Shown here: positions 6,027 to 38,308 of the stretch, piece after piece
How positions within the stretch are numbered: the first letter of the stretch is position 1
How the letters are laid out: every line of letters begins with the position of its first letter
Source: Candidatus Binatia bacterium
GTDB taxonomy: Bacteria > Desulfobacterota > Binatia > UBA12015
Assembly: GCA_046327915.1 (NCBI GenBank)
Contig: JAXLXO010000004.1
Coordinates: 311,064 to 375,063 of the forward strand
DNA: 64,000 nt
Direction: 5' to 3'
Notes under the pieces: generated by a model
Databases searched by the model: none
What the model was told of the DNA's origin: nothing
The model's input: the letters and a program-made list of their open reading frames with translations, nothing else
Position numbers and translations under genes: made by a program

Positions 6027-6037
6027 GATCCAGCGCA

Positions 6038-12238: not shown

Positions 12239-12381
12239 CGGATGTCTCTCGCGTCGGGAACCTTTCGCCGATCGCCGGGCGCGGTGCAATCGGAAGAGAT
12301 TCGCGCGACGCACACCGCCGACATGCGCGTCGCGGCTTTGTTTCTTGAAATGATCCGGAACCGGGGTAGCCTCGGGGGCCG

Positions 12382-13323: not shown

Positions 13324-13369
13324 AGCGCGCATCGCGCGTCCGGCGTCCGACCTGCGCGGTGAGCCCGCG

Positions 13370-13846
13370 CTAGAACCAGCTCGTGTCCGTCATCGCGCCC
13401 GGCACCAGTCGCGCGGTGACGTCGTGCGCCTCGTCGCGCACCATGATGTCCTTGCCGTCGGTCCAGACGCGCACGCGCTGCTTCGGGTAGCCGTCGATGT
13501 CGAGCTTCAGGTAGCCCTCGCCGTCGACCGCGTACGTGCCGGTCTTGCGCGTCCTCTGGTCGTCGATGAAGCGCACGGTCGCGGTGAAGCTGCCGTCGCT
13601 GCCGAAGCGGACGCCGACGCCGCTGATCACGAAGAAGAGCGCGCCGCCGGCGTCGAGCGTGTGCCACGCCGTGCCGGGAAGCGCGGGCAGCACGTTCGAC
13701 TCCTGTGCGACGGCGGTGGCGTCCATCGCCGGCGCGCGCAGCACCGCCGCGCACACGAGCGCGAAAAGCACGATCCGTGCAGCCGTCCTCGCGGCGGCGC
13801 GCGCCGGTCGATCGACGGCAGGGAAGGAAGTCCGGTGGTCGGTCAT
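13370..13846 (-). CDS. hypothetical small secreted protein (last gene of nar supercluster)
   Basis: 158 aa. N-terminal hydrophobic signal ([19 protein letters not shown]) and normal composition. ATGA overlap with the TehA-like gene. The Arg-rich 5' extension of ORF 13370..14725 was rejected. Confidence 0.5.
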
Positions 13847-14907: not shown

Positions 14908-14912
14908 CGCGC

Positions 14913-15281
14913 TCACGGCGTCGCTCCTGCCGTCCTGCGGAATGCTTCGAGGTACGACAGCAGCGCGTCGAGCTGCTCGCCGGACAGCGTGCCGCCGTAC
15001 GCCATCATCGCCGAGCCCGGGACGCCGTTCAGGATCGCGCCGCGCAGCCGCGCGGCATCCGCGTCGCGCCAGAATCCGGCCGATGCGAAGTCGGGCGGCC
15101 TCGGGATCATGGTCACGCCGGCCGGACCGTCGCCTCGTCCACCGTCGCCGTGGCAGAACGCGCACCGGCTGCGGAACAGATCGCCGCCGAGCGCGAGCTG
15201 CGCCGGATCGGCGGTCTGCGCGTCTGCGGTGTGCGCGACGGCCGACACGACCAGCAGCGCCAGTGCGACGCGGCGGATCAC
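14913..15281 (-). CDS. class I mono-haem cytochrome c
   Basis: 'CAFCHG' haem-binding motif, distal Met region 'GSAMMAYGG', signal peptide. GTG start with a GTGA overlap on the ppiC-like stop. Confidence 0.7.
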
Positions 15282-16093
15282 GAACACCCCTGCGTGCCGC
15301 ACTGGCACGACGACTCGCCGTGCGCGGCGTCGACCGTGCGTGCTTCGGCGTCCAGACCCTCGACGTCCGCGGCGGCCACCAGATCGCGCACGAATTCCGC
15401 GGCCGCGGCGCGCCAGCGGCGGTCGAGCAGCCGCTCGCGCGCGAGACCGCGCGCCTCGCGCCACTCGAGCGGACGTCCCGGCGCACGCTCGTCGAGGCGC
15501 ACCACGTGGTAGCCGAAGCGCGTCCGCACCGGCGCGGGACAGACGTCGCCAGGCGCGAGGTGCTGCAGCACCGCCGCGAACTCCGGAACCGTGTCGCGCG
15601 CCGTCACCTGCCCGAGGCTGCCGCCGCTCTGCGCCGACGAGCAGCCGGAACGCTCGCGCGCGAGGTCGGCGAAGCGCGACGGATCGCGCGCCAGCTCCGC
15701 GATGCACTCGGCCGCGGCGCTGCACGCGCGCTCGAGCGCCGCGGAATCCGACGGCGGCGCGAGGAAGAGGATGTGCGACGCCTCGAACAGGTCGGGCGTG
15801 CGGTCGAGCTCGGGATGGCTGTCGTGCTCGGCGCGGCAGTCCGACTCGCTCGGCTCGTCGACCGCGACGTGGCGCACGACCAGCTCGTCGATCGCGCGCT
15901 GGCAGGCGCTCTCGTCGCGCTCGTCCGCGGCGACCAGCCCTTCGCGCGCGGCCGTCTGGCGCAGCACCTCGCGCACCACCAGAGCGCGCGCCGCGCGCAG
16001 CTCCGCGTCCTCGCGGCTCGCCGCGCGATGGTACTGCATCTCGCGCAGCACCTCGTCGTCGCCGATCGCGACCGCGTTCACGCGGAGCGCCAT
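15278..16093 (-). CDS. PpiC/parvulin-type peptidyl-prolyl isomerase (NifM-like)
   Basis: C-terminal rotamase domain '…[55 protein letters not shown]'. Overlaps the narI 3' end by 16 nt. Confidence 0.65.
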
Positions 16094-16812
16094 CCCGGTC
16101 CCTTCCGCGTCCGCGCACGATACGGCTCGCGCACGATCTGGTAGCGGCGGCCGAGGTACCACACCGGCGCGCTCCAGATGTGGATCAGCCGCGTGAACGG
16201 CACCAGCAGCACCACCGTCAAGCCGAGGACGATGTGCAGCTTGTAGACCAGCGGGATCGGCAGCAGCAGCTCCCACGCGTCGGCGCGGAACGTCACCAGG
16301 CGCTGCGCCCAGAACGCGGCGTGAAGCAGCGTCTGTCCCGACACGTGGTCCGCCCACGAGGCCGGCAGCGTCGCGAGCCCGATCGCCAGCTGCACCCAGA
16401 TGATCACGAGGATCAGCACGTCGGACCAGCTGCTCGAGCGCAGCACGCGCGCGTCGAAGAGCCTTCGGTGCAGCAGGATCGTCGTGCCGATGAAGCAGAT
16501 GGTGCCCGAGATGCCGCCGGCGAAGACCTCGAGGACGGCGTGCTCCTGCACGGTGAAGCCGACGCGCGTGTAGAGCGACACCGGCGTCAGCATGCCGGCG
16601 ACGTGGCCGAGCACCAGCGCGATCGCGGCGACGTGGAAGATGTTGCTGCCCCACACCAGCTGCCGCTTGCGCAGCATCTCGCTCGACCCGCTGCGCCACG
16701 TGTACTGCTCGCGCTCGAAGCGCAGCCAGCTGCCGACGAGGAACACCGTCACGCAGACGTACGGGTAGATGCCGAACAGGAAGCGCTGCAGCAGCTCGCT
16801 CGCGACGCTCAC
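16078..16812 (-). CDS. narI: respiratory nitrate reductase gamma subunit
   Basis: 244 aa, 5 TM helices, conserved 'FLFGIYPYV' N-terminus and His ligands. GTG start overlapping the narJ stop (GTGA). Confidence 0.85.
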   Translation of the reverse strand: MSVASELLQRFLFGIYPYVCVTVFLVGSWLRFEREQYTWRSGSSEMLRKRQLVWGSNIFHVAAIALVLGHVAGMLTPVSLYTRVGFTVQEHAVLEVFAGGISGTICFIGTTILLHRRLFDARVLRSSSWSDVLILVIIWVQLAIGLATLPASWADHVSGQTLLHAAFWAQRLVTFRADAWELLLPIPLVYKLHIVLGLTVVLLVPFTRLIHIWSAPVWYLGRRYQIVREPYRARTRKGPGWRSA

Positions 16813-17480
16813 GAGCACCTCCCCGCGCGCGTCGCGGCCGCAGCGTCGGCCGCTCCCGCGCTGGTGAAGTCGACCACCGGCTCCTCCCACTCGCGGTCGA
16901 GGCGCTCGAGCTCGCTTTCCTCGGTCGCGTCGACGGCCTGCTCGACGTCGCGCAGCGCCGCGCGATCGACGGCGTCCCCCGCGAGATCGATCAGCGCCTC
17001 GAGAACCGCCGCGTACGGCGACAGGCGCAGCTCGAGCTTGCGCCGCAGCGCCGCGAGGATCGGCGCCGCGTCGTCGAGCAGCGGGCGCGCGACGCTCTCC
17101 GGCGCGAGCGACAGGAACTCGCACAGCAGCGGCAGGTAGTCGGGCAGCTCGGTGGTCGACGGCTCGAGGCCGTTCTCGACGTACAGGCGGCGCAGGTCGA
17201 CCATCGCCTGGCCGCGCTCGCGCGCCTCGCCGTGCACGTGCTCGAAGAGGTGCAGCGAGCACGCGCGGCCGTGATCGAAGGTCGCGACCCACGCCTCCTC
17301 GAGGTCGAGCAGGGAGCCTTCGCGGAATCCCGCGAGGAGTCGCGCGACGCCGTCGCGCGCGTGCGCGGAGAGCCGCGGCTCCGCGGCGACGCGACGCTCG
17401 ATCTCGTCGACCGCGGCGAGCAGGTCGCTGCTCGGGTAGAGCAGCAGCGCGCCCAGCACCTTGCAGCTCGCGAGGCTCAC
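16809..17480 (-). CDS. narJ: nitrate reductase molybdenum cofactor assembly chaperone
   Basis: 'MSLASCKVLGALLLYPSSDLL…' is a NarJ/TorD-family N-terminus. GTG start overlapping the narH stop (GTGA). Confidence 0.8.
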   Translation of the reverse strand: MSLASCKVLGALLLYPSSDLLAAVDEIERRVAAEPRLSAHARDGVARLLAGFREGSLLDLEEAWVATFDHGRACSLHLFEHVHGEARERGQAMVDLRRLYVENGLEPSTTELPDYLPLLCEFLSLAPESVARPLLDDAAPILAALRRKLELRLSPYAAVLEALIDLAGDAVDRAALRDVEQAVDATEESELERLDREWEEPVVDFTSAGAADAAAATRAGRCS

Positions 17481-19000
17481 ATGACCTCGCTCGGCGTCCG
17501 GCGCCCGGCGCCGCCGCCGAAGAAGACGCTGCCGCGCGAGTCGGGCGCGTCGCAGCCGTTGCCGAAGGTGAAGCCGCACGCGCCGCGCAGCTCGTAGGCG
17601 TCCTCCGCGAGCTCGCGATGGCTGGTCGGGATCACGAAGCGGTCCTCGTAGTTCGCGATCGCGAGCAGGCGGTACATCTCCTCGATCTGCTGCCGCGACA
17701 GCCCGACGCGCGCGAGTACCTCGTCGTTGTCGCGTCCCTCGACGTGGCGGTCGCGCATGAACACCCGCATCGCGAACATGCGCTCGAGGGCGCGCACGAT
17801 CGCGGGCTCGTCGCCGGCCGAGAGCAGGTTCGCGAGATAGCGCACCGGGATGCGCAGCTTGCGGACGTCGGGCAGCGCGCCGTCGAAGCCGATCGCGCCC
17901 GACTCCGCGGACGCCTGGATCGGGCTCAGCGGCGGGCAGTACCAGACCATCGGCAGCGTCCGGTACTCGGGGTGCAGCGGGAACGCGATGCCCCACTCGA
18001 CGGCGAGCTTCCACACCGGCGAGCGCTGCGCCGACTCGATCCACGCCTCGGGAACGCCCGCGTCGCGCGCCGCCTGCTGCACGTCGGGATCGTTCGGGTC
18101 GAGGAACATCTCGAGCTGGGCCGCGTGCAGGTCGCGCTCGTCCGGGGTCGCCGCCGCCTGCTCGATGCGGTCGGCGTCGTAGAGCATGACGCCGAGATAG
18201 CGGATGCGTCCGACGCAGGTCTCCGAGCACACCGTGGGCAGCCCGGACTCGATGCGCGGGTAGCAGAAGATGCACTTCTCGGCCTTGCCCGAGCGCCAGT
18301 TGTAGTAGATTTTCTTGTATGGACAGCCCGACAGGCACATGCGCCAGCCGCGGCACTTGTCCTGGTCGATGAGGACGATGCCGTCCTCCTCGCGCTTGTA
18401 GATCGAGCCCGACGGACACGACGCGACGCAGGTCGGGTTCAGGCAGTGCTCGCACAGGCGCGGCAGGTACATCATGAACGTGTTCTCGAACTGCGCGACC
18501 ATGTCCTTCTCGACGCCTTCGAGGTTGGCGTCGCGACTGCGGTCGGCGAACGCGCCGCCGAGGTCGTCCTCCCAGTTCGCGCTCCACGTCACGCGCTCCA
18601 TGTGCTTGCCGGTCAGCAGCGAGATCGGGCGCGCGACCGGCACGTCCTCCGACTCCGGCGCGGACTGCAGCGTGCCGTAGTCGAAGGTGTACGGCTCGTA
18701 GTAGTCGTCCACTTCGGGCATGTGCGGGTTCGCGAAGATCTGCGCGAGCACGCGGAAGCGTCCGCCGAGACGCGGCACGAGCTTGCCGTCGGCGCGCCGC
18801 ACCCAGCCGCCGCGCCAGCGGCCCTGGTTCTCCCACTCCTTCGGGTAGCCGACGCCGGGCTTGGTCTCGACGTTGTTGAACCACGCGTACTGCACGCCGT
18901 CGCGGTTGGTCCACACGTTCTTGCAGGTCACCGAGCAGGTGTGGCAGCCGATGCACTTGTCGAGGTTCAGCACCATCATGATCTGGGCACGAACCTTCAT
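17477..19000 (-). CDS. narH: respiratory nitrate reductase beta subunit
   Basis: 508 aa, with four FeS cysteine clusters (CIGCHTCSVTC, CEHCLNPTCVASC, CRGWRMCLSGC, CIFCYPR). ATGA overlap with narG. Confidence 0.9.
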   Translation of the reverse strand: MKVRAQIMMVLNLDKCIGCHTCSVTCKNVWTNRDGVQYAWFNNVETKPGVGYPKEWENQGRWRGGWVRRADGKLVPRLGGRFRVLAQIFANPHMPEVDDYYEPYTFDYGTLQSAPESEDVPVARPISLLTGKHMERVTWSANWEDDLGGAFADRSRDANLEGVEKDMVAQFENTFMMYLPRLCEHCLNPTCVASCPSGSIYKREEDGIVLIDQDKCRGWRMCLSGCPYKKIYYNWRSGKAEKCIFCYPRIESGLPTVCSETCVGRIRYLGVMLYDADRIEQAAATPDERDLHAAQLEMFLDPNDPDVQQAARDAGVPEAWIESAQRSPVWKLAVEWGIAFPLHPEYRTLPMVWYCPPLSPIQASAESGAIGFDGALPDVRKLRIPVRYLANLLSAGDEPAIVRALERMFAMRVFMRDRHVEGRDNDEVLARVGLSRQQIEEMYRLLAIANYEDRFVIPTSHRELAEDAYELRGACGFTFGNGCDAPDSRGSVFFGGGAGRRTPSEVM

Positions 19001-22000
19001 CTTGCTGCTCCCTGCGCCTCGTCGCGCGCCGGTCCGCTGCCCCAGCGCGGCTCGCCGAGCTTGCGGATGACGACGGTCTCGTCGCGGTTCGCGCCGATCG
19101 TTCCGTAGTAGTTCCAGCCGTAGCTCAGGTGCGCGTAGCCGCCGATCATGTGCGTCGGCTTCGGGATCACGCGCGTCACCGAGTTGTGGATGCCGCGCGT
19201 TCCGGTCGCCTGCGTCTGCGGCGTGGCCACCAGCTTCTCCTGCGCGTGGTACATCATGCAGGTGCCGCGCATGACGCGCTGGCTGACGATCGCGCGCGCC
19301 GCGACCGCGCCGTTCACGTTCACCGCCTCGATCCAGTCGTTGTCGGCGATTCCCGCCTCGCGCGCCTCGTCCTCGTTGAGCCAGATCACGGGGCCGCCGC
19401 GCGCCAGCGTGAGCATCAGCAGGTTCTCGGTGAACGAGCTGTGGATCGACCACTTCTGGTGCGGCGTCAGGAAGTTCAGCACCAGCGTGCCGGGACCGCG
19501 CAGCTTCGGATCGCGCAGGTCGTCGAGAGCCAGCGTGTCGAGCGGCGGACGATAGGTCGCGAGCGCCTCGCCGAAGGCGCGCATCCACAGGTGGTCCTGG
19601 TAGAGCTCCTGCCGTCCGGACAGCGTGCGCCACGGGATCAGCTCGTGCACGTTGGTGTAGAACGCGGTGTAGCTGACGGTCTCGGAGTCGACGCCGCTCC
19701 AGATCGGCGACGTGATCACTTTTCTCGGCTGGGCCACGAGGTCGGCGAAGCGGATCACCTCCTCGCTGCGCGACGCCGCGAGGTGCCGGTGCTGCCGTCC
19801 CGTCTGGCGCTCGACCGACGCCCACGCGCGCACCGCGACCTGGCCGTTGGTCTCGGGCGACAGCGTCAGCACGGTCTCGCAGGCCTCGACGTCGCTGACG
19901 ATGCGCGGACGGTCGCGCGCGATCTCGTCGCCGCTGTCGCCGTTGAGCGCGCGCAGCATCGCGACCTCGTCGGTCGCCGGCCACGCGAAGCCCTTGGCGC
20001 CGATGCCGGGCTTGTCGACCAGCGGGCCGAGCGCCGTGAAGCGCGCGTACGTGTCCGGGTAGTGGCGCTCGACCACCGCGACGCCGGGCATGGTCCTGCC
20101 GGGCACGGGGTCGCACTCGCCCTTCTTCCAGTCCTTGACGTCGTACGGCTGCGCGAGCTCGCCGGGCGCGTCGTGCTGCACCGGTACGAGCACCGCGTCG
20201 TGCTCGACGCCGAGATGACCCGCGGTGCACTCGGAGAAGCGCCGCGCGATCCCCTTGAAGATCTCCCAGTCGGTGCGCGCCTCCCACACCGGATCGACCG
20301 CGGCGCCGAGCGGGTGCACGAACGGATGCAGGTCCGTCGAGCTGAGGTCGTTCTTCTCGTACCAGGTCGCCGCCGGCAGGACGACGTCGGAGTACATGCA
20401 CGTGCTCGACATGCGGAAGTCGAGCGTGACGAGAAGGTCGAGCTTGCCCTCGGGCGCGTCGCTCTCCCACTCGATCTCGCGCGGCGGCTCGAGGCCGCGC
20501 TCGACGACGTCGCGCGCCTGCACCGCGTTCTTCGCGCCGAGCAGGTGCTTCAGGAAGTACTCGTGACCCTTCGCGCTCGAGCCGAGCAGGTTCGCGCGCC
20601 ACACGAAGAGCATGCGCGGGAAGCTGGTCGGATGGTCGGGGCGCTCGCTCGCGAGGCGCAGCGCGCCCGACTTCAGCGCGTCCGCGACGTGCGCGCCCGG
20701 CGTCGCGCCCGAAGCCGCGATGTCACGCCCCACCTGCAGCGGATTCTGCGCGAGCTGCGGCGACGTCGGCAGCCAGCCCATGCGCTCCGCGCGCACGTTG
20801 AAGTCGATCAGGCTGCCGCCCCAGTCGCCGTCGGGTGCGGTCGGCGACAGCATCTCCGCCGGCGTCACCGTCTCGTAGCGGAACTGGTCGGTGTGCGCGT
20901 AGAAGTACGAGGTCGTGTTCATCTGGCGCGGCGGACGCGTCCAGTCGAGCGCGAACGCGAGCGTCGACCAGCCGACCAGCGGACGGATCTTCTCCTGCCC
21001 GACGTAGTGCGCCCAGCCGCCGCCGGGCTTGCCGACACAGCCGCACAGCACGAGCAGGTTGATGATCGCCCGATACGTCGTGTCGGTGTGGTACGCCTGA
21101 TTGACGCCGCAGCCGATGATGACCTTGGCGCGGCCATCGGTCTTCTCGGCGCTGTGCGCGAACTCGCGTGCGAGGTTGATCGCGATGCGGCGGTCGACGC
21201 CGGTGATCGCCTCCTGCCACGCCGGCGTGAACGGACGATCGGCGTCGTCGTACGTCGCCTCGTCGCCGGGCTCGAGTCCGCGCGGGACGCCGTAGCTCGC
21301 CAGCATCAGGTCGAGCACCGTCGCGACCGGAACCTCGCCGTCGCGCAGCTTCAGGCGACGCACCGGAACGCTGCGCTCGACCACGTGATCGGGCGCCGAC
21401 GCCTCGAAGCGCGGGAACGCAACGTTGGCGAAGCCGTCGCGGCGCTCCGCGACGCTCAGCGCGAGCTCGACCTCGTGGCCGTCGCGCGCGTCGCGCTGCT
21501 CGAGGTTCCATTTCTCCCCCGGGCTCCAGCGGAAGCCGATCGAGCCGTTCGGCACCACGACGTCGCCGCTCTTCGCGTCGAGGCCGACCGTCTTCCAGTC
21601 CGGGTGCTCGTCCTGCGCGAGCGCGCCGTCGAAGTCGGCCGCGCGCAGCATTCGGCCGGGAACCCAGCGATCCCCTTGCCGGTCGAGACGCACCAGCATC
21701 GGCAGGTCGGAGAAGCGGCGCGCGTAGTCGACGAAGTACGGCACCTGCCGGTCGACCCAGAACTCCTTCAGCACGACGTGCCCGACCGCGAGCGCGAGCG
21801 CCGCGTCGGTGCGCTGCCGCGGCCGCACCCACAGGTCGGCGAACTTCGCCGCCTCGTTGAAGTCCGGTGAGACGACGACGGTCTTGGTGCCCTTGTAACG
21901 AGCCTCGACGTAGAAGTGCGCGTCGGGCGTGCGCGTCTGCGGCACGTTCGAGCCCCACAGCACGAGGAACGCGGCGTCGTACCAGGCGGCGCTCTCGGGC

Positions 22001-22710
22001 ACGTCGGTCTGCTCGCCCCAGGTCATCGGCGAGCTCGGCGGCAGGTCGCAGTACCAGTCGTAGAAGCTGAGGCAGGTGCCGCCGATCAGCGACAGGAAGC
22101 GCGTCCCGGCTGCGAACGACACCATCGAGAACGCGGGGATCGGCGTGAAGCCCGCGACGCGGTCCGGACCCCACTTCTCGATCGTGTGCACGGCGGCGGC
22201 GGCGATCATCTCGTTCGCCTCCTGCCACGACACGCGCACGAAGCCGCCGCGTCCGCGCACGCGCTTGTAGGACGCCGCGCGCTCCGGATCGTCGGCGATG
22301 CTGCGCCACGCCTCGACCGGATCCATCGCCGCGCGCGCCGCGCGCCACAGCTCGACCAGACGGCGGCGCACCAGCGGATACTTGACGCGGTTTCCGCTGT
22401 ACAGGTACCAGGACGCGCTCGCTCCGCGCGGACAGCCGCGCGGCTCGTGGTTCGGCAGGTCCGCCCGCGTGCGCGGGTAGTCGGTCGCCTGCATCTCCCA
22501 GGTGACGAGCCCGTTCTTGACGAACACCCGCCAGCTGCACGAGCCGGTGCAGTTCACGCCGTGCGTCGAGCGCACGATCTTGTCGTGGTCCCAGCGGTTC
22601 CGGTAGCCGTCCTCCCAGCTGCGGTCCTCGCGCGTGACGACGCCGAGATCGCCGGCGAACGTGCCGACGTTCTTGCGGAAGAACAGCAGACGGTCGAGCA
22701 GCAGGCTCAC
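18997..22710 (-). CDS. narG: respiratory nitrate reductase alpha subunit
   Basis: 1237 aa. N-terminus 'MSLLLDRLLFFRKNVGTFAGD…WEDGYRNRWDHDKIVRSTHGVNCTGSCSW' matches the NarG FeS0 H-x3-C-x3-C motif. Collinear with NarG throughout. Confidence 0.9.
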   Translation of the reverse strand: MSLLLDRLLFFRKNVGTFAGDLGVVTREDRSWEDGYRNRWDHDKIVRSTHGVNCTGSCSWRVFVKNGLVTWEMQATDYPRTRADLPNHEPRGCPRGASASWYLYSGNRVKYPLVRRRLVELWRAARAAMDPVEAWRSIADDPERAASYKRVRGRGGFVRVSWQEANEMIAAAAVHTIEKWGPDRVAGFTPIPAFSMVSFAAGTRFLSLIGGTCLSFYDWYCDLPPSSPMTWGEQTDVPESAAWYDAAFLVLWGSNVPQTRTPDAHFYVEARYKGTKTVVVSPDFNEAAKFADLWVRPRQRTDAALALAVGHVVLKEFWVDRQVPYFVDYARRFSDLPMLVRLDRQGDRWVPGRMLRAADFDGALAQDEHPDWKTVGLDAKSGDVVVPNGSIGFRWSPGEKWNLEQRDARDGHEVELALSVAERRDGFANVAFPRFEASAPDHVVERSVPVRRLKLRDGEVPVATVLDLMLASYGVPRGLEPGDEATYDDADRPFTPAWQEAITGVDRRIAINLAREFAHSAEKTDGRAKVIIGCGVNQAYHTDTTYRAIINLLVLCGCVGKPGGGWAHYVGQEKIRPLVGWSTLAFALDWTRPPRQMNTTSYFYAHTDQFRYETVTPAEMLSPTAPDGDWGGSLIDFNVRAERMGWLPTSPQLAQNPLQVGRDIAASGATPGAHVADALKSGALRLASERPDHPTSFPRMLFVWRANLLGSSAKGHEYFLKHLLGAKNAVQARDVVERGLEPPREIEWESDAPEGKLDLLVTLDFRMSSTCMYSDVVLPAATWYEKNDLSSTDLHPFVHPLGAAVDPVWEARTDWEIFKGIARRFSECTAGHLGVEHDAVLVPVQHDAPGELAQPYDVKDWKKGECDPVPGRTMPGVAVVERHYPDTYARFTALGPLVDKPGIGAKGFAWPATDEVAMLRALNGDSGDEIARDRPRIVSDVEACETVLTLSPETNGQVAVRAWASVERQTGRQHRHLAASRSEEVIRFADLVAQPRKVITSPIWSGVDSETVSYTAFYTNVHELIPWRTLSGRQELYQDHLWMRAFGEALATYRPPLDTLALDDLRDPKLRGPGTLVLNFLTPHQKWSIHSSFTENLLMLTLARGGPVIWLNEDEAREAGIADNDWIEAVNVNGAVAARAIVSQRVMRGTCMMYHAQEKLVATPQTQATGTRGIHNSVTRVIPKPTHMIGGYAHLSYGWNYYGTIGANRDETVVIRKLGEPRWGSGPARDEAQGAAR

Positions 22711-22838: not shown

Positions 22839-25172
22839 TCACGCCGGAGTCTTCGTCGTGTCGCCGTACGTGCGGGACGAGAACGGCTCGTTGGTCGCTC
22901 CCGTCAGCTCCTCGAGCCGGCTGCGCAGCCAGCGCGGCGGCTCGCCGAAGCTCAGCCTCCGCAGCGCGACCGGCGACGACTTGAAGTGCGGCTGCTTGCT
23001 GACAGCATCGCGCGCGTACCACGTGTGCGTGTTGGCCGACTGGTCGGCGCCGCCGTAGTGGAACGGCGCGAACACCTCGCCACGGCGCACCGTGTCGACC
23101 ACCATCGCGATCGCCTCCGAGCGTCCGTGCGGCGAACGGATCTCGACCGCGTCGCCGAGCTCGATGCCGAGACCCGCCGCGTCCTCGGGGTGGATCTCCA
23201 CGTACACGGCCGGGGCGTGCGCGTTCAGCACGTCGGAGCGCGCCGTCTTGGTGCGGGTGTGGAAGTGGTAGACGAGCCGGCCGGTGTTGAGCAGCAGCGG
23301 ATACTCGTCGGAGACCGGATTCGGGTGCGCGTGCCAGTGCACCGGGCGAAGGATCGCCTTGCCGGCCGGATCGGCGCGCCGGTACTCCGCCGGCGACGTG
23401 CCGCGCCCGGTGTAGAAGTCGACGCCGAAGCTCTCGCAGGCGTCCGCGTCGGTCCAGAAGTGCAGATCCTCGTAGAGCCTCTCCGCCCCGCGCGGGTACT
23501 TCTCGTTGCAGGGCCAGCGCACCGCGCCCATCTCGAGGATCAGCTCGTACGTCATGCCGGAGTAGTCGCAGCCGCGGCCCTTCGAGACCTTGCGCCACTC
23601 GTCGAACGCCGCGCGCGGCTCCTGGTACGGCAGCAGCGACTTGCCGTCGCGGTCCTTGAAGCCGAGGCGGTTCGCGATCTCGACGAAGACGTCGAAGTCG
23701 CTGCGCGCCTCCCCCGGCGGGTCCACCGCCTTGAGCAGCAGATTGACGCTGCGATCCGCGTTGGTGACGCAGCCGCTCTTCTCGCCCCACATCGCCGCGG
23801 GGAAGTAGATGTCGGCGAAGTCGACCGTCTCGGCGTCGACGAACGGATCCTGCACGACGAGGAAGAGCTTGTTCAGGATCGCCGCCGTCCGGTTGCGGTC
23901 GGGCACGCTGACGATCGGATTGGTTCCGATCACCCACATGAACTCGATCTCGCCGCGCTCGGCCATCTCGAGCATGGTGAGGATGTCCTTCGGGTCCTCC
24001 GGCCGGAAGCGGTCGAAGTCGATGTTCCAGATCTCGCACAGCTCGCGCATCTGCGGCTCGCTGTGCGGATTCCGGTACGCGGGATACGAGCCGCCGGCTC
24101 CGGTCTCGCGGTTGTTCATCGCGGACGGCTGGCCCGCCATGAGCAGCGGACCGGTGCCCGGCTTGCCGATGGCGCCGGTCAGCAGGTGGACGACGTTGAT
24201 CAGCGACGACGCCGCGGTCGCGCCGATGCTCTGGTAGAAGCCCATCAGCGCGGTCGACACCATCTTCGGCGTCGTTCCGATCCACTCCGCCGCGGTCTCC
24301 AGCTGCGCCTGCGGGATGCCGCAGATCGCGGCGACGCGGTCGGGCGGATACTCGCGCGCCACGGCCGCGACGTCGTCGAACCCGATCGTGTGCTGCGCGA
24401 CGAAGTCACGGTCGACCTGGCCGCGCGCGATCAGCAGGTGGATGATCCCGTTCATCAGCGCGACGTTGGTTCCCACCTTCACCTGCAGATGAAGGTCGGC
24501 GCCCTGCCGAACCGTCGGGGTGGTGCGCGGATCGACCACGATGATCCGTCCGCCGTTCTTCTGCCGCGCCGACAGCATGCGCTCCCAGAGCACCGTCTGC
24601 GTCTCGGCGACGTTGTGTCCGTAGAGGCAGAGCAGGTCGGCCTGGTCGACGTCGGCATAGGATGCGACCGGCCCGTCCGAGCCGAAGGTCGCCGTCAGCG
24701 CCGTCGCCGCGCTCGACGTGCAGAGCCTGGTGTTGCCGTCGATGTTCGACGACTGCAGCCCGCCGCGCCACATCTTCGCCAGCGCGTAGAACTCCTCGAG
24801 CATCAGCTGGCCGGAGCTGTAGCAGGCGAGATTCTGGTGCCCGGACGCCCACGCCGCGCGAAACTTCTCCACGAAGAAGTCCATCGCCTCGGACCAGCCG
24901 ACCGGCTGCAGCGGGTCGGACTTCCGGCGGCGGATCATCGGGGTCGTGCCGCGCCGCTTCGCACCGTTGGCGATCCAGCAGTGCTCGCCCTTCGGGCCGA
25001 GATGTCCGGCGTTGACGGGATGGCTAGTCGTGCCGCGAACGCCGACGATCGCGCGGTCCTTCACCGCGATCTCCAGGCCGCAGCCGTTCGAGCACAGCAG
25101 ACAGGCGGAGTGAACCCAGGCGTCGGGCTCTCCCTGGATGCCGACGTTCACGTCTCTTCGAGGCTGCATCAC
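22839..25172 (-). CDS. cytoplasmic MopB-family nitrate reductase catalytic subunit (assimilatory NasA/NarB-type)
   Basis: 777 aa, no Tat signal. N-terminal 4Fe-4S 'CLLCSNGCG'. NasA/NarB-like segments 'FMWVIGTNP', 'NTGRLVYHFHTRTKT' and 'FAPFHYGG'. Confidence 0.7.
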   Translation of the reverse strand: MMQPRRDVNVGIQGEPDAWVHSACLLCSNGCGLEIAVKDRAIVGVRGTTSHPVNAGHLGPKGEHCWIANGAKRRGTTPMIRRRKSDPLQPVGWSEAMDFFVEKFRAAWASGHQNLACYSSGQLMLEEFYALAKMWRGGLQSSNIDGNTRLCTSSAATALTATFGSDGPVASYADVDQADLLCLYGHNVAETQTVLWERMLSARQKNGGRIIVVDPRTTPTVRQGADLHLQVKVGTNVALMNGIIHLLIARGQVDRDFVAQHTIGFDDVAAVAREYPPDRVAAICGIPQAQLETAAEWIGTTPKMVSTALMGFYQSIGATAASSLINVVHLLTGAIGKPGTGPLLMAGQPSAMNNRETGAGGSYPAYRNPHSEPQMRELCEIWNIDFDRFRPEDPKDILTMLEMAERGEIEFMWVIGTNPIVSVPDRNRTAAILNKLFLVVQDPFVDAETVDFADIYFPAAMWGEKSGCVTNADRSVNLLLKAVDPPGEARSDFDVFVEIANRLGFKDRDGKSLLPYQEPRAAFDEWRKVSKGRGCDYSGMTYELILEMGAVRWPCNEKYPRGAERLYEDLHFWTDADACESFGVDFYTGRGTSPAEYRRADPAGKAILRPVHWHAHPNPVSDEYPLLLNTGRLVYHFHTRTKTARSDVLNAHAPAVYVEIHPEDAAGLGIELGDAVEIRSPHGRSEAIAMVVDTVRRGEVFAPFHYGGADQSANTHTWYARDAVSKQPHFKSSPVALRRLSFGEPPRWLRSRLEELTGATNEPFSSRTYGDTTKTPA

Positions 25173-25413
25173 CTTCTCCGTGTTCGTCCTGCGGGACGAC
25201 GCTTCTCGACGACGCCGGGGACGGCGTCGAGAGGTCTTGCAACGCGGGCCCCGGATCTCTCCGCCGACCTTCGGCCGAGTCTTCGCCCGGCGTGAGCGCC
25301 TTGTATTGCGGAATCGCGCGGCGATCTTTCAGAATCCTGCGCGACGTCGAGGCGGCCGCGAGAGATGCGAAGCTGGAACCGGCTCCACGCGGCGTGCTAC
25401 AGCGGCGTCCCCG

Positions 25414-26766
25414 ATGGCCAGCGCATCCGAGGCGTCAAGCAGTGCTGCGGCGGCCCGCGAGGAAGAGCGGACCGAGCTGGCGGCGGATCGCCGGGATCTC
25501 GTCCGGCTCGCTCTCGTCGCGATTCCCGCCGGAGCGCTGACCGGCCTCCTGGGTGCCGCCTTCCGCATGGTGCTCGACGCCGCCGGGACGTGGCGTCTCG
25601 ATCTCGTGCGGTGGTCGAGCACCCTCGGTGCGTGGGGCGTGGCCGTGCCGATCGTCGTCGTCGCGGCATGCGCGGCGATCGCACGCGCGCTCGTGCGGAT
25701 CGCGCCGGTGGCCGGCGGCAGCGGCGTGCAGCACGTCGAGGCCGTCGCGCGCGGACAGGCCGAGCCGGCACCACCCGTGGTGCTGCCCGTCAAGTTCATC
25801 GGAGGATCGCTCGCGCTGGGCTCGGGCCTCGCGCTCGGACGCGAAGGACCGACGGTGCAGATGGGCGCGGTCGTCGGCGAGGCGCTCGCGCAGTGGGCCC
25901 GGCTGCCGATCGAGGACGTGCGCCGCATGTCCACCGCGGTCGCGGGCGCCGGCCTCGGCGTGGCGTTCTCGGCGCCGCTCGGCGGCGCGACGTTCGCGTT
26001 CGAGGAGGTCGCGCGGCGCTTCGATCTGCGGCTCGTCGTCGCGACCCTGCTGTCCGGCGCCACGGCGGCCGCGGTCGCGTGGTCGCTGATCGGCAATGCG
26101 CCCGACTTCGCGGTCCGTCCGCCGCCGCCGCCCGCGTGGCACGTCGCCGTCCCCGTACTCGTGTTCGGCCTGCTGCTCGGCCTCGCGGGCGTGGCCTACA
26201 ACAGGCTCGTGGTCGCGCTGCTCGATGCGGCCGACCGCTGGCCGCGCGTGCCGGCCGAGGCGCGTGCCGCGCTCGTCGGCGCGCTCTTCGGCCTGCTCCT
26301 CTGGGTCGAGCCGTCGCTGGTGGGCGGCGGCGACGCCGTCAATCAACGGATCCTCGACGGCGCGGTGCCGATCGCCACGATCGGCACGATCGCCGTGGCG
26401 CGCTGGCTGCTCGGCCCCGTCAGCTACGCTCCTGGCGTTCCGGGCGGCCTGTTCGCGCCGCTGCTGCTGGTCGGGTCGGCCGCCGGAGCGCTGTTCGCGT
26501 CGGCGGGGAACCACCTCGTGCCGGCGCTCGGGCTCGACCCGACGGCCTTCGCCATCGTCGGGATGGCGACGTTCTTCGCGGCCGTCGTGCGGGCGCCGCT
26601 CACCGGCATCGTGCTCATCGTCGAGATGACCGCGACGACGACCCAGGTGGTGCCGATGCTCGCGGCATCGACGGCCGCGGTGATCGCGGCGACGCTCCTG
26701 CGTGGCGAGCCGGTCTACGACACGCTGCGCCTGCGCATGCTGAGCCGCACGACCGACCGCCGCTGA
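25414..26766 (+). CDS. ClC-family anion channel/H+ antiporter
   Basis: 'GSGVQ', 'GREGP', 'GGLFAP' selectivity-filter-like motifs and about 10-12 TM helices. Start chosen at MASASE (ORF 25138.. has an Arg-rich junk 5' part). Divergent from the nasA-like gene. Confidence 0.75.
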   Translation: MASASEASSSAAAAREEERTELAADRRDLVRLALVAIPAGALTGLLGAAFRMVLDAAGTWRLDLVRWSSTLGAWGVAVPIVVVAACAAIARALVRIAPVAGGSGVQHVEAVARGQAEPAPPVVLPVKFIGGSLALGSGLALGREGPTVQMGAVVGEALAQWARLPIEDVRRMSTAVAGAGLGVAFSAPLGGATFAFEEVARRFDLRLVVATLLSGATAAAVAWSLIGNAPDFAVRPPPPPAWHVAVPVLVFGLLLGLAGVAYNRLVVALLDAADRWPRVPAEARAALVGALFGLLLWVEPSLVGGGDAVNQRILDGAVPIATIGTIAVARWLLGPVSYAPGVPGGLFAPLLLVGSAAGALFASAGNHLVPALGLDPTAFAIVGMATFFAAVVRAPLTGIVLIVEMTATTTQVVPMLAASTAAVIAATLLRGEPVYDTLRLRMLSRTTDRR

Positions 26767-26800: not shown

Positions 26801-27571
26801 TCAGTCGAGCTCCTGACTCCCGCCGCCGCTCACCGTGAGCACCTGGCCGCTGATCCACGCCGCAGCGGGCGAGCACAGGAAGCGGGCTGCGCGCGCGATG
26901 TCCGCCGCCTCACCCAGCCTTCCGAGCGGCGTGTGCGCGAGCATCCGTTTCTCGATCTCCGGTGTGAGCACGCTGGCGAGTGCCGCGGTGCGAATCGCGC
27001 CCGGCGCGATCGCGTTCACGCGGATGCCGCGCGGCCCGAGGTCGAACGCGAGATTCCGCGTGAGGTGATTCACCGCCGCCTTCGACGACGCGTACGAGCT
27101 CATGTCGACGTTCGCGTTCTCGCCCGCCATCGAGCTGACGTTGACGATCGCACCGCGCCCGGCGCGCTCCATGTGCGGTGCGACGAGCTGACACAGGCGA
27201 AAGACGGGGAAGACGTTCAGCTGGTAGGCCCGGAGGAAGTCGTCGAACGGCATGTCGAACGGCTTCGGTCCGCCGCCACCGGCGTTGTTCACGAGGATCG
27301 TCGGCGCGCCGAGGGCACGCTCCGCTTCCGCGACCAGACGAATCAGGTCGTGCTCGACGGTGACGTCCGCCGGGATCGCGATCGCCGTGCAGCCGCTGCG
27401 CTCGATCTCCCCAACCAGTGCGTTCGCCGCGGCGGAATCGCGATCGCTCACCGCGATGCGTGCTCCCGCCGCCGCGAACGCCAGCGCGATGGCGCGTCCG
27501 ATCCCGGCGCCCGCGCCTGTGACGATGGCGACCTCGCCGTCGAGGCGAAACAGCTGATCTTCCGACTTCAC
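26801..27571 (-). CDS. SDR-family oxidoreductase (FabG/7alpha-HSDH-like)
   Basis: 'TGAGAGIGRA' Rossmann motif, 'NNAG', catalytic 'YASSKAA'. Confidence 0.8.
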   Translation of the reverse strand: MKSEDQLFRLDGEVAIVTGAGAGIGRAIALAFAAAGARIAVSDRDSAAANALVGEIERSGCTAIAIPADVTVEHDLIRLVAEAERALGAPTILVNNAGGGGPKPFDMPFDDFLRAYQLNVFPVFRLCQLVAPHMERAGRGAIVNVSSMAGENANVDMSSYASSKAAVNHLTRNLAFDLGPRGIRVNAIAPGAIRTAALASVLTPEIEKRMLAHTPLGRLGEAADIARAARFLCSPAAAWISGQVLTVSGGGSQELD

Positions 27572-27706
27572 CCGCTTCCTCCGATGAATGCACTCGTCGT
27601 CGAAGGATCGAGCATCATCCGTCCGCAGACTGCGAGTCTTCCATCAGGGCGACACCGCATTTCAGGAACGTGCGCCGACATCGGAATCGGCAGCACGACG
27701 AAGCGC

Positions 27707-29085
<1,379 letters not shown>

Positions 29086-29089
<4 letters not shown>

Positions 29090-30567
29090 GCGGAGTCCGC
29101 CTGCGCCACCTGCGTCCCCTGCGCCGGAGGCAGGTGGATCGCCATTTCGGTGCCCCGGCCGCGCTCGCTGCGAACCTCGATCCATCCGCCGGCATCCTGC
29201 ACGATGCCTTCGGCGATCGCGAGCCCGAGGCCGGTCCCCTCGCCGGGGCCCTTGGTCGTGAAGAAGGGCTCGAACACGTGCGGCAGATCCTCGGCCGCGA
29301 TGCCCTCGCCCTCGTCGGCGATCACGATGCGCACGTAGCGGCCCTCGGGTCCGCCGCGCACCGTCGGCGGCGTCGCACGCCGCTCCTCGACGCTCACGCG
29401 CACGCGGCCGCCCTCGTGGCTCGCCTGCACGGCGTTGAGGACGACGTTGGTCAGCACCTGCTGCGCCTCGCCGGCGTCGAGGCGCACGACCACCGGGGAC
29501 ACGGGCGCGTCCACCTCGATGGCGACGTCGCGCGAAGACGCGATCGGGTTCAGCATCTCGGCCGCGGTGCGCACGCACTGCGCGACGTTCACCGCGCCCA
29601 TGCGCGTGCTGCGCCGGCGCGAGAGATCGAGCAGCTGGCGGATCATGTCGGTCATGCGCGACGCCTGCTCGCCGATGACGCGCGCGTGCGCCCGCGTCTG
29701 CGCGTTCAGCTGCAGGTCGGAGCCGATCATCTTGGCGCGCGCCGACACGACGTTGAGCGGCGTGCCGAGCTCGTGTGCGATGCCCGACGCGAAGCGTCCG
29801 ACGCTCGCCAGGCGCTCCGAGTGCCGCATGCGCTCGAGCGCCGCGAGCTTCGCCTCGGTCTCCGCGGCGAGGCGCGCGTTGGTCTCGGCGATCTTCTGGC
29901 ACATGTCGTCGATCTCGGCGCCGAGCTCGCCCATCTCGTCGCGCTGCTTCAGCGACAGGCAGCCCGCGAAGTCGCCTTTGCCCGCGCGCCGCGCGCGGTC
30001 GCGCAGCAGCTCCACGGGACGTCCGACGAACCAGTAGCCCAGAAACAGAGCGGTGAACGCGGACGCGAGCACCACGCACAGCGTGGTGACGAAGATCGCC
30101 GTCTGCGACGTGCGCACGAACGAGACCTCGCGGTAGAGCCGCCGCGTGATCTCCAGCGCCTCCGTGCTGCCGTTGCCCATCGGCACGAAGTTCACGCGCC
30201 GCGGGTCGTCGCCGTGCTCGTCGACCAGCAGCATCAGCACCGCGCCCGCCTCGAGTGCTTGACGGTCCTGCGGCAGCAGTTCGGCGTATCCCTGCTGCCC
30301 GGGCTTCGCCGCGAGGTCGATCCAGCGGACGTCGACGTTCTCGAGCATGTCGGCGACCTTCTCGACGATCTCCTGCGTCTTGACGGCGCCGTCGCGCTTC
30401 CACATCTCCTGGATCAGGAGCCGCACGGCCGCGCCGCGCGTGGCGCTGCCCTGCAGGTCGCCCTCGAAGAGGATGACCTGCTTGCGGCTCAGGTAGAACG
30501 CATAGGCCGCCATCACGACGAAGATCGTCGCGGTCAGCGCGAAGGTGATCTTGCGGGCGAGCTTCAT
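29086..30567 (-). CDS. sensor histidine kinase (two TM, periplasmic sensor, HAMP, HisKA, HATPase)
   Basis: H-box 'ASGIAHELGTPLN', G-boxes 'DEGEGI' and 'GTGLGLAIAEG'. Two TM segments flank a roughly 140-aa periplasmic domain. The low-complexity 5' part of ORF 29086..31614 was rejected. Confidence 0.8.
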
Positions 30568-30695
30568 GCCTGGGATTCGGGGCAGCCGCGGTCCGGCGGC
30601 GATCTCCGGCGCGGCGGCCGGATCATTGCACGTCGGATCGGATGAGCTCCACTCCCGGGCGAAGGTGTCTGCCGGGACGGGCCACACGGCGAACC

Positions 30696-31178
30696 TCAGG
30701 CCACGTTCACGTTCAGTTGAAGGCTCGCGGCGCCTCTTCGCTCCTTCGTGCCCGACGAGGCCGGAGCCGACGTCAGAAAGAAGCTCTCCACGGCGCGATC
30801 CTGCTGTTGAGCGCTTTTGGAAGACCTCGGAGCGAGAAGCATCCAGCGCAGCTTCTCGCCGTCGAGCTCGAGCGCGTCGCAGATCGTGTCGAAGGCGAAC
30901 AACGAGTCGCGGCCGCGGCGCGAGATCCAGGCGCGCGCCTGCATGGCGACGCGCGCACGATGGCTCGGCTTGATCCCCCGTCCCGACAGGCAGGTGATCG
31001 CGTCGACGAGCACCGCGCGCATCAGCGCGAGCTCGCCGACGCTCTCGGTGGTCGGAGCGGAGGTCGAGAGAGGAGGCGTCTCCCCGTCCACCAGATCGGC
31101 CGGGGAGACGCCCAGGGAGGAAGCGTCGACACCGTTGGGGAGCGGTGCGGACGTGGGCGAGGCCGTCGCCGCGTCCAT
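30696..31178 (-). CDS. hypothetical protein (possibly first gene of the two-component operon)
   Basis: The C-terminal 110 aa has normal composition (…LMRAVLVDAITCLSGRGIKPSHRARVAMQARAWISRRGRDSLFAFDTICDALELDGEKLRWMLL…). The N-terminal part is Ser/Thr/Pro-rich. Start is uncertain. Confidence 0.3.
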   Translation of the reverse strand: MDAATASPTSAPLPNGVDASSLGVSPADLVDGETPPLSTSAPTTESVGELALMRAVLVDAITCLSGRGIKPSHRARVAMQARAWISRRGRDSLFAFDTICDALELDGEKLRWMLLAPRSSKSAQQQDRAVESFFLTSAPASSGTKERRGAASLQLNVNVA

Positions 31179-31337
31179 GAAAGACCGGCTTCGACTCCGC
31201 CGAGGGAGGGAAGTGACGACGCGGCCGAGCGGCCTCGACGTGGTTGAAGTTGCCGAGTCGGCCACCTGGGCGGTGGCCGCGTGGGGGGCTTGCCGTCTTT
31301 CGCGTCGCACGGCGGGCGGATAGAGCAGCCGCTGTGC

Positions 31338-31373
31338 CACGAAAAAACCTGCGCGGTTGCTGGGTTTTTCCGG
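31338..31373 (-). terminator. A/T-rich imperfect hairpin followed by a T-run on the minus strand (candidate intrinsic terminator)
   Basis: Plus strand reads 'cacgaaaaaacc tgcgcggttgct gggtttttccgg'. On the minus-strand transcript, a GGAAAAACC…GGTTTTTTC stem precedes T6, downstream of the 31538..31759 gene. It is conspicuous in a 70% GC context. Confidence 0.35.
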
Positions 31374-31537
31374 AGCGCCGAGCGGGCCCTTCCGACACAC
31401 CCCGTGCGCCGCCGCGCGGCGCGGGAGAATTTCCGCTGCAGCGGTGCGGCTTTACCGCCGGGGTGTGTCGCGCGGACACAGCGGAGCGGAACGACCCGGC
31501 GGCCGTGGGCCGCCTTGCGGAGGCGGGTGCCCGGGCG

Positions 31538-31759
31538 TCAGCGGTGCGCCGCGCGGGTGTCGGGCACCGCCCGGAGCCGCGACCCGAGGAGCCACCATGA
31601 GACCGGGAACGCAAGCAGCCCGATCGAGCCCGCGACGATCAGCGCGTCCCACACGGCGTCGTCGCCACCCACGACGAGGACGGCGAACAGCAGCGAGAAG
31701 ATCGCCCCGACGAGGCCGGAGACCGCAGCGATGCCGAGCGCGCCGATGAATCGCGACAT
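31538..31759 (-). CDS. small two-TM membrane protein (hypothetical)
   Basis: 73 aa, 'MSRFIGALGIAAVSGLVGAIFSLLFAVLVVGG…IVAGSIGLLAFPVSWWLL'. Lies 36 nt downstream of the YfhO-like gene. The Arg-rich remainder of ORF 31538..33697 was rejected. The start coordinate may be off by one. Confidence 0.35.
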   Translation of the reverse strand: MSRFIGALGIAAVSGLVGAIFSLLFAVLVVGGDDAVWDALIVAGSIGLLAFPVSWWLLGSRLRAVPDTRAAHR

Positions 31760-36808: not shown

Positions 36809-38308
36809 ATGGCCGCGATCGACGGACTGCTGGGCATCCTCATCGGACAGGGCGCGGACGCGCTGACGCTGACGGAGGGGCAGGCGCCACGGCTGACCCG
36901 GGCCGGCGAGCCCAGGCCGCTGTCGATGCCGCCGTTGCTGCCCGAGCTGCTCGGACGCTTCATCGAGGAGGTGCGCGCCGCCGGCGACGGGACGTCGTAC
37001 CAGCACGAGGCGAAGGGCGTCCGCACCACGTTCGCCGTCGAGATCGAGGGCACGCGCGAGATCCGCTTCCGCCGCGCCGATGCACCGGCCGCGGCTCCGG
37101 CGGACGCCGCGCCCGCCGCTGCCGCACCGGCCGGCGGCGAGCCGGCTGCCGCGCTGCCGCCGACGTCGGCCGCGCCGACCGCGGTCGGCGATTCCGCGCC
37201 CGCCGCGTCACCGCGGCGCCTCTACGCGCAGCCCCGTCCCGGCATCGCCCCGACCAACGGTGCGATCGCGGACCTGATCCGCCGCGCGCTCGACGCCGAC
37301 GCGACCGACCTCTTCGTCTCCACCTCGGCCGACGCCCGCATGCGCGTCGGCATGGAGCTGCGCGAGATCCCCGGCTCCCGGCTCGACGAGGGCACGCTGC
37401 TCGAGCTGGTGGCGCTCGACGACGCGCACCACGCGCGCCTCGAGAAGCACGGCAGCGTGGATCTCGGGCTGCACTTCGGCGACGTCAAGCTGCGCGTCAA
37501 TCTGTTCCGGCACCTCGGCGGTCTCGCCGCGGCGGTGCGTCCGCTGCGCCGCGTGCGCACGCTCGCGGAGCTGGGCCTGCCGCCGGACCTCGAGAAGCTG
37601 ACCGAGCCAATCGACGGGCTGGTGCTGCTGGTCGGACCGACCGGCTCGGGCAAGTCGTCGACCATCGCGGCACTCCTCGACCACGTGAACCGCACGCGCG
37701 CGAAGCACATCCTCACCATCGAGGATCCGGTCGAGTACGAGTACGCGAGCGGCTCGTGCCTGGTGCACCAGCGCGAGGTCGGGCGCGACGTCGAGAGCTT
37801 CGCCGCGGGACTGCGCGCGGCGCTGCGCGAGAGCCCCGACGTGATCCTGGTCGGCGAGATGCGCGACCGCGAGACCTTCGCAGCTGCAATGACCGCCGCC
37901 GAGACCGGACACCTCGTGTTCTCGACGCTGCACTCGGGCAACGCCGCGATGGCGATCGACCGCATCGTCGACTCGTTCCCGCCGCACCAGCAGACGCAGG
38001 TGCGCGCGCAGCTCGCCAACGTCCTGCGCGCGATCGTGACGCAGCTGCTGCTGCCCGCGGCGCAGCCGGGACGGCTCGTGCCGGCGACCGAGCGCATGTT
38101 CGTCACGCACGCGATCGCGCACAAGATCCGCGAGGGACGCGGACACCAGATCAGCGACCTGATCCTGACGGGGCGCGCGGAGGGAATGGTGTCGCTCGAG
38201 GCCTCGCTCGCGGAGCTGGTGCGGCAGAACCGCATCACGCTCGCGACCGCGCGCGCGGCGGCGCGCAACCCCGACGTGATGCGCGAGATGCTCGGCGCGC
38301 GCGCCTAG
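36809..38308 (+). CDS. pilT: PilT/PilU-family type IV pilus retraction ATPase paralog with extended N-terminus
   Basis: Walker A 'GPTGSGKSST', 'HILTIEDPVEYEY', Asp box 'ILVGEMRD', His box 'GHLVFSTLHS'. About 230 aa N-terminal to the ATPase core, including an Ala/Pro-rich linker. Confidence 0.75.
   Translation: MAAIDGLLGILIGQGADALTLTEGQAPRLTRAGEPRPLSMPPLLPELLGRFIEEVRAAGDGTSYQHEAKGVRTTFAVEIEGTREIRFRRADAPAAAPADAAPAAAAPAGGEPAAALPPTSAAPTAVGDSAPAASPRRLYAQPRPGIAPTNGAIADLIRRALDADATDLFVSTSADARMRVGMELREIPGSRLDEGTLLELVALDDAHHARLEKHGSVDLGLHFGDVKLRVNLFRHLGGLAAAVRPLRRVRTLAELGLPPDLEKLTEPIDGLVLLVGPTGSGKSSTIAALLDHVNRTRAKHILTIEDPVEYEYASGSCLVHQREVGRDVESFAAGLRAALRESPDVILVGEMRDRETFAAAMTAAETGHLVFSTLHSGNAAMAIDRIVDSFPPHQQTQVRAQLANVLRAIVTQLLLPAAQPGRLVPATERMFVTHAIAHKIREGRGHQISDLILTGRAEGMVSLEASLAELVRQNRITLATARAAARNPDVMREMLGARA

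Follow-up and report, generated by a model that had tools for sequence, protein, structure and literature searches.

A ClcA-like transporter gene beside a nitrate reductase operon

We analysed a 64-kb stretch of contig JAXLXO010000004.1 from a Candidatus Binatia bacterium (referred to as the window; G+C content 71.8%), in which a gene for a transporter of the ClC (CLC) family adjoins a respiratory nitrate reductase operon. The ClC gene occupies positions 25414-26766 on the forward strand and encodes a predicted ClcA-type CLC anion/proton exchanger of 450 amino acids without CBS domains. In divergent orientation, across an intergenic region at 25170-25413, lies the gene of a predicted cytoplasmic Nap/Nas-like oxidoreductase of the molybdenum-bis(pyranopterin guanine dinucleotide) (Mo-bisPGD) type, hereafter the Mo enzyme (776 amino acids; 22839-25169, reverse strand). 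It is followed on the same strand, after a gap of 128 bp, by narGHJI, in which the genes are tightly packed and overlap by 4-16 bp. The last gene of the operon (13843-14916, reverse strand) encodes a TehA/SLAC1-like anion channel or transporter of the TDT family. On its other side, the ClC gene is convergent with a gene for an SDR oxidoreductase (26801-27571, reverse strand).

Upstream of the ATG at 25414, a longer open frame extends in frame to position 25138. As the additional part is rich in arginine and overlaps the neighbouring gene, homologues measure 448-460 amino acids, and solved ClC structures align with the protein from residue 15 onwards, the ATG at 25414 is the credible start of the ClC gene. 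Compared with the Pfam profile PF00654 (Voltage_CLC), the sole Pfam domain found, the protein scores 275.8 bits (cut-off 24.8; E 6.9e-82) over profile positions 3-344 of 346, and it ends 25 residues past the CLC domain. The solved CLC exchangers of Salmonella (1KPL), Synechocystis (3ND0), and E. coli (1OTS) align with it end to end with E values between 2e-53 and 3e-47. Together, the Voltage_CLC match and the full-length matches to StClC and EcClC-1, which lie far beyond chance, confirm the original prediction of a ClC-family transporter at this position; judged by them, the protein is a further member of an already known family.

The selectivity filter is predicted to be of the chloride type

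Residue equivalences were taken from HMMER alignments to the chains of the Protein Data Bank (PDB) and from a MAFFT alignment with the 120 best database homologues (122 sequences in total). In the latter, the numbering of EcClC-1 at S107, E148, and Y445 was cross-checked against the HMMER alignment to the PDB chain.

Ser103 (codon 25720-25722), located in a GSGVQ motif (residues 102-106; 25717-25731, forward strand), aligns with S107 of EcClC-1 and P160 of AtCLCa and corresponds to the central serine (Ser_cen). This Ser/Pro selectivity position is taken by serine in all 122 aligned sequences, including 120/120 of the best homologues, and by proline in none. Glutamine in place of Pro110 of the canonical GSGIP occurs in 119 of the 122 aligned sequences, which makes it a mark of the whole clade rather than of this locus. 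Glu144, in a GREGP motif (residues 142-146; 25837-25851, forward strand) that is found in 122/122 aligned sequences, corresponds in the PDB-chain and homologue alignments to E148 of EcClC-1, the gating glutamate (Glu_ex). Both motifs had been quoted in the original prediction and are indeed present. Glu197 and Glu198 align with E202 and E203, with the FAFEEV segment of the window ClC placed on IIEEM, so that Glu198 is assigned as the proton glutamate (Glu_in). It is this internal proton-transfer glutamate (E203) that tells CLC exchangers from channels. Phe347 in GLFAP corresponds to F357 at the central anion site, and Tyr435 in GEPVYDT to Y445, the central tyrosine (Tyr_cen) at the N-terminus of helix R. 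E113, K131, and R147 of EcClC-1 are likewise kept. A reading of the segment EMTATTT as a lost central tyrosine was discarded, as Y445 aligns in GKPLYSA of EcClC-1 and is kept as Tyr435.

In the plant vacuolar 2NO3-/1H+ exchanger AtCLCa (7XA9, 8IAB), Pro160 (GPGIP) replaces the central serine and is a key determinant of nitrate selectivity, and the variant P160S reverses the preference (PMC9898749). The window ClC has Ser103 where AtCLCa has Pro160; hence its filter is assigned to the chloride type, and the AtCLCa mechanism of nitrate preference should not be shared. The original prediction had considered an AtCLCa-like, nitrate-selective filter and had named residues typical of chloride-selective clades as evidence to the contrary. 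With serine at the deciding position here and in all of the best homologues, that part of the prediction is not supported. AtCLCa is otherwise a CLC exchanger with the same gating and proton glutamates, which gives a weak match (E 1e-12); its CBS domains and its regulation by ATP have no counterpart in the window ClC.

The nearest functional models are EcClC-1 and StClC (ClcA; 1OTS, 1KPL), with which the window ClC shares the fold, the length, the lack of CBS domains, Ser_cen, Glu_ex, Glu_in, Tyr_cen, the GxFAP motif, and the residues equivalent to E113, K131, and R147. It differs from EcClC-1 in overall sequence (about 29% identity), in the first filter motif, which is GSGIP there and GSGVQ here (Ile to Val and Pro110 to Gln), in a leucine at the position of I356, and in its setting, which is enteric acid resistance for EcClC-1 and a nitrate-respiration context here. 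The second-best solved relative, the Synechocystis CLC sll0855 (3ND0; E 1.4e-52, residues 31-445 aligned), has GSGIP, and GFEGP in place of GREGP, and lacks a nar context. The CLC-F fluoride/proton antiporters (6D0J) are, like the window ClC, prokaryotic CLC exchangers without CBS domains. CLC-F proteins are not known to have Ser_cen and Tyr_cen, whereas the window ClC keeps both; as, in addition, the CLC-F match is weak (E 6e-7, compared with about 1e-47 for EcClC-1) and no fluoride (crcB) riboswitch is found upstream, an assignment to CLC-F was rejected.

ClC genes at three loci of a NarK-less nitrate reductase lineage

The product of narG (18997-22710; 1237 amino acids) scores 1909 bits in TIGR01580 (cut-off 1084) and is the alpha subunit of a respiratory nitrate reductase of the cytoplasm-facing type; its N-terminus resembles that of E. 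coli NarG. It is followed, all on the reverse strand, by narH (17477-19000), narJ (16809-17480), narI (16078-16818), a gene for a PpiC-type peptidyl-prolyl isomerase (15278-16093; Pfam Rotamase), and one for a small c-type cytochrome with a CAFCH motif (14913-15287; Pfam Cytochrome_CBB3 and Cytochrom_C). With the latter, the terminal TehA-like gene (Pfam SLAC1, 165 bits) overlaps by 4 bp. The TehA-like protein scores 97 bits in TIGR00816, below the cut-off, and at the sequence level it matched none of the solved structures. A Nar that faces the cytoplasm depends on anion traffic, which transporters of the NarK/NarU type supply. No NarK-type transporter was found in the 64-kb window, neither by Pfam scans of the called genes nor by tblastn with a verified NarK.

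Three loci were looked up as relatives of the TehA-like gene (L093, L094, and L095). In two of them, L093 and L095, the gene (10001-11041 and 10001-11047, respectively) is again the last, translationally coupled gene of a narGHJI operon, while L094 contains neither nar nor ClC. In L093 a divergent ClC gene, about 105 bp from narG, precedes narG, narH, narJ, narI, and the TehA-like gene. In L095, narGHJ, a fusion of narI with a cytochrome c domain, and the TehA-like gene are followed by a nosZ cluster ending in a ClC gene. This ClC gene (19524-20852, forward strand) has the same orientation as the nosZ-nosD-ABC cluster, follows its last gene at a distance of 30 bp, and apparently lies within the N2O-reductase operon; tblastn with NosZ and NosD of L095 gave no match in the window.

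For comparison, 80 other NarG-centred metagenome loci were used, taken from the matches listed (among which the closest members of the lineage did not appear) and comprising 1.02 Mb of flanks. NarG of the window is 75% and 72% identical to that of L093 and L095, and at most 65% identical to that of the 80 listed loci. For NarI the values are 74-75% and at most 55%, respectively; the NarH proteins of the two related loci are 77-79% identical to that of the window, and their Nitrate_red_del proteins are 49-50% identical to NarJ. A NarK-like gene occurs in 53 of the 55 other listed loci with at least 3 kb of upstream sequence, and in none of the window, L093, and L095. The pattern is reversed for the TehA-like gene (2/80 and 3/3) and for a ClC gene, which is absent from all 80 listed loci and lies within 12 kb in 3/3. 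Since the NarG and NarI identities stand apart, NarK is absent, and all three have both a TehA-like and a ClC gene, these loci represent a separate nar lineage that lacks NarK, bears TehA, and has a ClC each time. In L093 the contig ends 148 bp past the TehA-like gene, and the absence of NarK downstream of the operon refers to that span there. Leaving out the window, ClC is present in 2/2 and 0/80 loci, for which a naive Fisher test gives p of about 3e-4, or about 1e-2 if L093 and L095 go back to a single ancestral event. The ClC-nar pairing may hence be non-random.

The ClC proteins of L093 and L095 (motifs GSGIQ, GREGP, MEEL, and GIFAP) are 60% identical to each other, whereas their identity to the window ClC is no higher than 36-40%. 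By these identities, ClCs of two subclades are attached to the NarK-less nar module. The position next to narG, which is otherwise held by NarK or NarU, is taken by ClC in L093 and by the Mo enzyme and ClC in the window; NarK/NarU, as transporters of the major facilitator superfamily (MFS), have an unrelated fold.

The TehA-like protein is a better candidate than ClC for an anion conduit dedicated to nar. In a plasmid collection, no NarI of more than 60% identity and no ClC of subclade B of more than 41% identity were found, TehA-like matches reached at most 52% identity, and 0/3 of those examined were next to nar. One plasmid locus (L177, Mesorhizobium loti pML2037, 12711-14926) contains a frame-broken TehA-like gene about 1 kb from an annotated 93-residue 'chloride channel protein' fragment, with NnrS, ric (iron-sulfur repair), and molybdopterin oxidoreductase genes nearby; the fragment gave no match to our ClC queries at E 1e-5.

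A literature search on ClC or TehA in nar clusters yielded no published ClC-nar link, and only a TDT gene in Nitrobacter and a speculation on ClC in vacuolar nitrate storage by Beggiatoa (PMC1951784). The nxr cluster of Nitrobacter winogradskyi comprises genes for cytochrome c, nxrA, nxrX, nxrB, narJ, nxrC, a NarK-like protein, and the TDT/TehA-like protein nwi_0780 (PMC4786786). It resembles the window in the NarG-type enzyme, the cytochrome c, the peptidyl-prolyl isomerase, and the terminal TDT/TehA-like gene (PMC4786786), and differs in that the NarK-like gene is kept, no ClC is reported, and the isomerase gene lies between those of the alpha and beta subunits. By analogy, the terminal TDT gene is a precedent for the TehA-like part of the module.

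The divergent intergenic region

The ClC gene had been described as lying head to head with the nitrate reductase gene cluster at a distance of 241 bp. This arrangement is confirmed, with a gap of 241 bp if the Mo-enzyme gene starts at the GTG at 25172 and of 244 bp for the ATG at 25169, which is preceded by GGAGAAGG and is the more likely start. Motif scans of the intergenic region (25170-25413) detected neither an FNR/Anr box nor a terminator, and no promoter consensus for sigma-70 or sigma-54. At gathering scores, riboswitches were absent from the whole window, and the intergenic region gave only a chance-level match. Just upstream of the Mo-enzyme start, an alignment with a same-species contig (L006) revealed a 77-bp segment (25186-25262) with the palindrome CTCGACGACGCCGGGGACGGCGTCGAG that is missing from that contig. 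The segment is unique in the window and not a repeated element, and its fold is not unusually stable (z -0.04).

Is the ClC gene linked to nitrate respiration?

As the best explanation as a whole, to which we give an even chance, the window ClC is a canonical CBS-less exchanger of the ClcA type, and ClC genes are tied to the NarK-less nar lineage. A functional link between ClC and nitrate respiration by itself is plausible from the synteny, close to evenly balanced if not quite so. Several observations weigh against this reading. The score of 324.1 bits in the NCBIfam ClcA equivalog NF003640 falls just short of the cut-off of 350, because of which the protein is better termed ClcA-like and not a certified ClcA equivalog. 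The census of the nar lineage comprises three loci, of which the window was chosen for its adjacency and therefore had to be left out of the statistics, and the two loci that carry the ClC-nar association are related to each other, as reflected in the identity of their ClCs. In addition, no motif common to the intergenic region and the regions upstream of narG in L093 and L095 was found.

Nor do the relatives of the ClC itself point to nar. Its adjacency to the Mo enzyme recurs only in the same-species contig, at about 97% nucleotide identity. A relative of 74% identity keeps the ClC-SDR pair, with Rieske and cytochrome c genes upstream and no nar, while three relatives of 69-72% identity (on five contigs) are located between ThiC and a PAS-GGDEF / malic-enzyme block, again away from nar. 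NarG, NarH, or NarI was found within 10 kb in 0/80 genome loci with ClC relatives of 41-59% identity. A conserved adjacency to nar was not found among the orthologues of the window ClC. Taken from the ClC side alone, and going by these gene contexts, the clade as a whole is not one of nitrate-respiration genes. Since the relatives keep the SDR pair or other contexts without nar, a nar island may have landed beside a resident ClC-SDR block.

Accordingly, the strongest alternative regards the ClC as an incidental neighbour: a housekeeping Cl-/H+ exchanger, serving chloride balance, pH, or acid stress as part of the ClC-SDR block, beside which the nar island was inserted without any link. We consider this quite possible, if somewhat short of probable. 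Besides the contexts of the relatives, it agrees with the lack of a shared promoter or operator motif and with the 77-bp insertion or deletion, which shows that the intergenic region is plastic. It does not account for the finding that both other NarK-less nar-TehA members carry a ClC in a denitrification cluster, as opposed to none of the 80 listed nar loci, for which the p values given above, including the one for a single ancestral event, speak against coincidence. Should the adjacency be incidental, the gene would represent one more ClcA-like exchanger.

Proposed role

While the family, the residues of the filter, the order of the genes, and the statistics on synteny are observed here, the substrate, the direction of transport, and the physiological role are inferred. 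The established stoichiometry of CLC exchangers is 2 Cl- : 1 H+. The conserved residues speak for an EcClC-1-like cycle, in which the window ClC would swap two anions for one proton, with Glu144 as the gate and the protons passing via Glu198, and the central anion site would be formed by Ser103, Tyr435, and the backbone amides of GLFAP. With three charges moved per cycle, a proton-motive force that is negative and alkaline inside would drive the extrusion of anions and not the import of nitrate, so that the protein should act as an anion extruder rather than a nitrate importer. Calculated from this stoichiometry, at an inside-negative potential of ~150 mV a cytoplasmic anion would be kept about four orders of magnitude below its external level. 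A suitability for anion efflux would hold less strongly for a channel of the TehA/SLAC1 type. If the ClC is linked to nar at all, the most likely role suggested by the sequence would be anion efflux (chloride, possibly nitrite) or the balancing of charge and pH during nitrate respiration, and a chloride-type ClcA-like exchanger is the most economical reading of the protein.

A more specific proposal is that the ClC is a dedicated extruder of nitrite or another N-oxyanion, which together with the TehA/SLAC1-like protein replaces the nitrite export by NarK and keeps cytoplasmic nitrite low. In 3/3 loci of this lineage NarK is missing and TehA-like and ClC genes occur, opposite to what is usual for nar loci. 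This fits the proposal, as do the energetics, which would favour anion efflux via both the exchanger and the channel, and the precedent of a TDT/TehA-like gene closing the nxr cluster of Nitrobacter (PMC4786786). Yet nitrite transport is not on record for any CLC, a NarK may be encoded elsewhere in the genomes (in L093, beyond the contig end 148 bp after the TehA-like gene), and the sample is tiny; we therefore regard the proposal as unlikely. Equally improbable in our view is its full form, in which the TehA/SLAC1-like protein and ClC jointly carry the nitrate and nitrite traffic of the NarK-less Nar lineage, with ClC as a nitrite (or N-oxyanion) extruder driven by the proton-motive force and two ClC subclades recruited independently.

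Least likely is a nitrate-preferring, AtCLCa-like NO3-/H+ exchanger that would act as a supply or relief route for the nitrate reductase. Nitrate is transported by CLC exchangers such as EcClC-1 with reduced coupling, and exchanging one serine for proline is enough to switch the preference. The position of the gene beside nar, the lack of a NarK-like transporter in the window, and the GSGVQ variant with glutamine for Pro110 could be taken in its favour, but it is very unlikely given that Ser103 is as in chloride-selective CLCs and proline occurs in 0/120 homologues (by the residue distinction of PMC9898749), that a 2:1 exchanger importing nitrate would have to work against the membrane potential, with three negative charges moving inward, and that the ClC clade is overall not associated with nar.

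If ClC genes indeed travel with NarK-less, TehA-bearing nar operons, this would give a prokaryotic CLC a concrete physiological context and would bear on the efflux of nitrite or chloride or on charge balancing during denitrification. To our knowledge, the roles of prokaryotic CLC exchangers are largely unclear beyond enteric acid resistance and fluoride export. It would further point to an unrecognised mode of anion handling for a cytoplasm-facing Nar in uncultured bacteria of high G+C content, for which metagenomes are the main source here. A nitrite-extruding ClC, if true, would be the first physiological N-oxyanion role of a prokaryotic CLC and a NarK-independent way of servicing Nar.

The Mo enzyme and other neighbouring genes

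The Mo enzyme, whose gene directly faces away from that of the ClC, carries a 4Fe-4S motif at its N-terminus and the conserved cysteine Mo ligand, and it lacks a Tat signal. Its best PDB match is the monomeric NapA of D. desulfuricans (E 1e-111, full length), and no NCBIfam equivalog cut-off was reached. Members of its family share 68-77% identity between phyla that are very far apart. In three relatives (L090, L091, and L092; each at 10001-12337) the gene adjoins a DyP peroxidase gene, in two of them directly after DyP and an encapsulin shell gene, and 0/3 are beside ClC, nar, or nitrate-assimilation genes. The label 'nasA-like' in the original prediction is thus supported at the level of the fold (Nap/Nas-type Mo-bisPGD) and not by the context of these relatives. 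That they adjoin DyP or encapsulin genes and have no nitrate-assimilation partners makes the substrate of the Mo enzyme uncertain and raises the possibility of a link to encapsulin systems.

Most of the 80 sampled nar loci have a homologue of the peptidyl-prolyl isomerase gene after narI. The cytochrome c domain fused to the C-terminus of NarI in L095 (8952-10004) is homologous to the small cytochrome of the window (52% identity), and this fusion suggests that NarI of this nar lineage exchanges electrons with partners in the periplasm.

The SDR oxidoreductase resembles 7-alpha-hydroxysteroid dehydrogenase (assigned by Pfam and above the NCBIfam cut-off). Its gene is followed by a two-component pair, consisting of a sigma-54 response regulator and a histidine kinase with HAMP domain (26801-31614 in total, reverse strand). 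Farther away, a cluster of four genes for sulfatases and one for a GH10 xylanase-like protein lies beside a TetR regulator (38305-46279), and two pectin-acetylesterase-like genes are found at 3850-9428; these genes suggest that the window stems from a polysaccharide-degrading soil bacterium.

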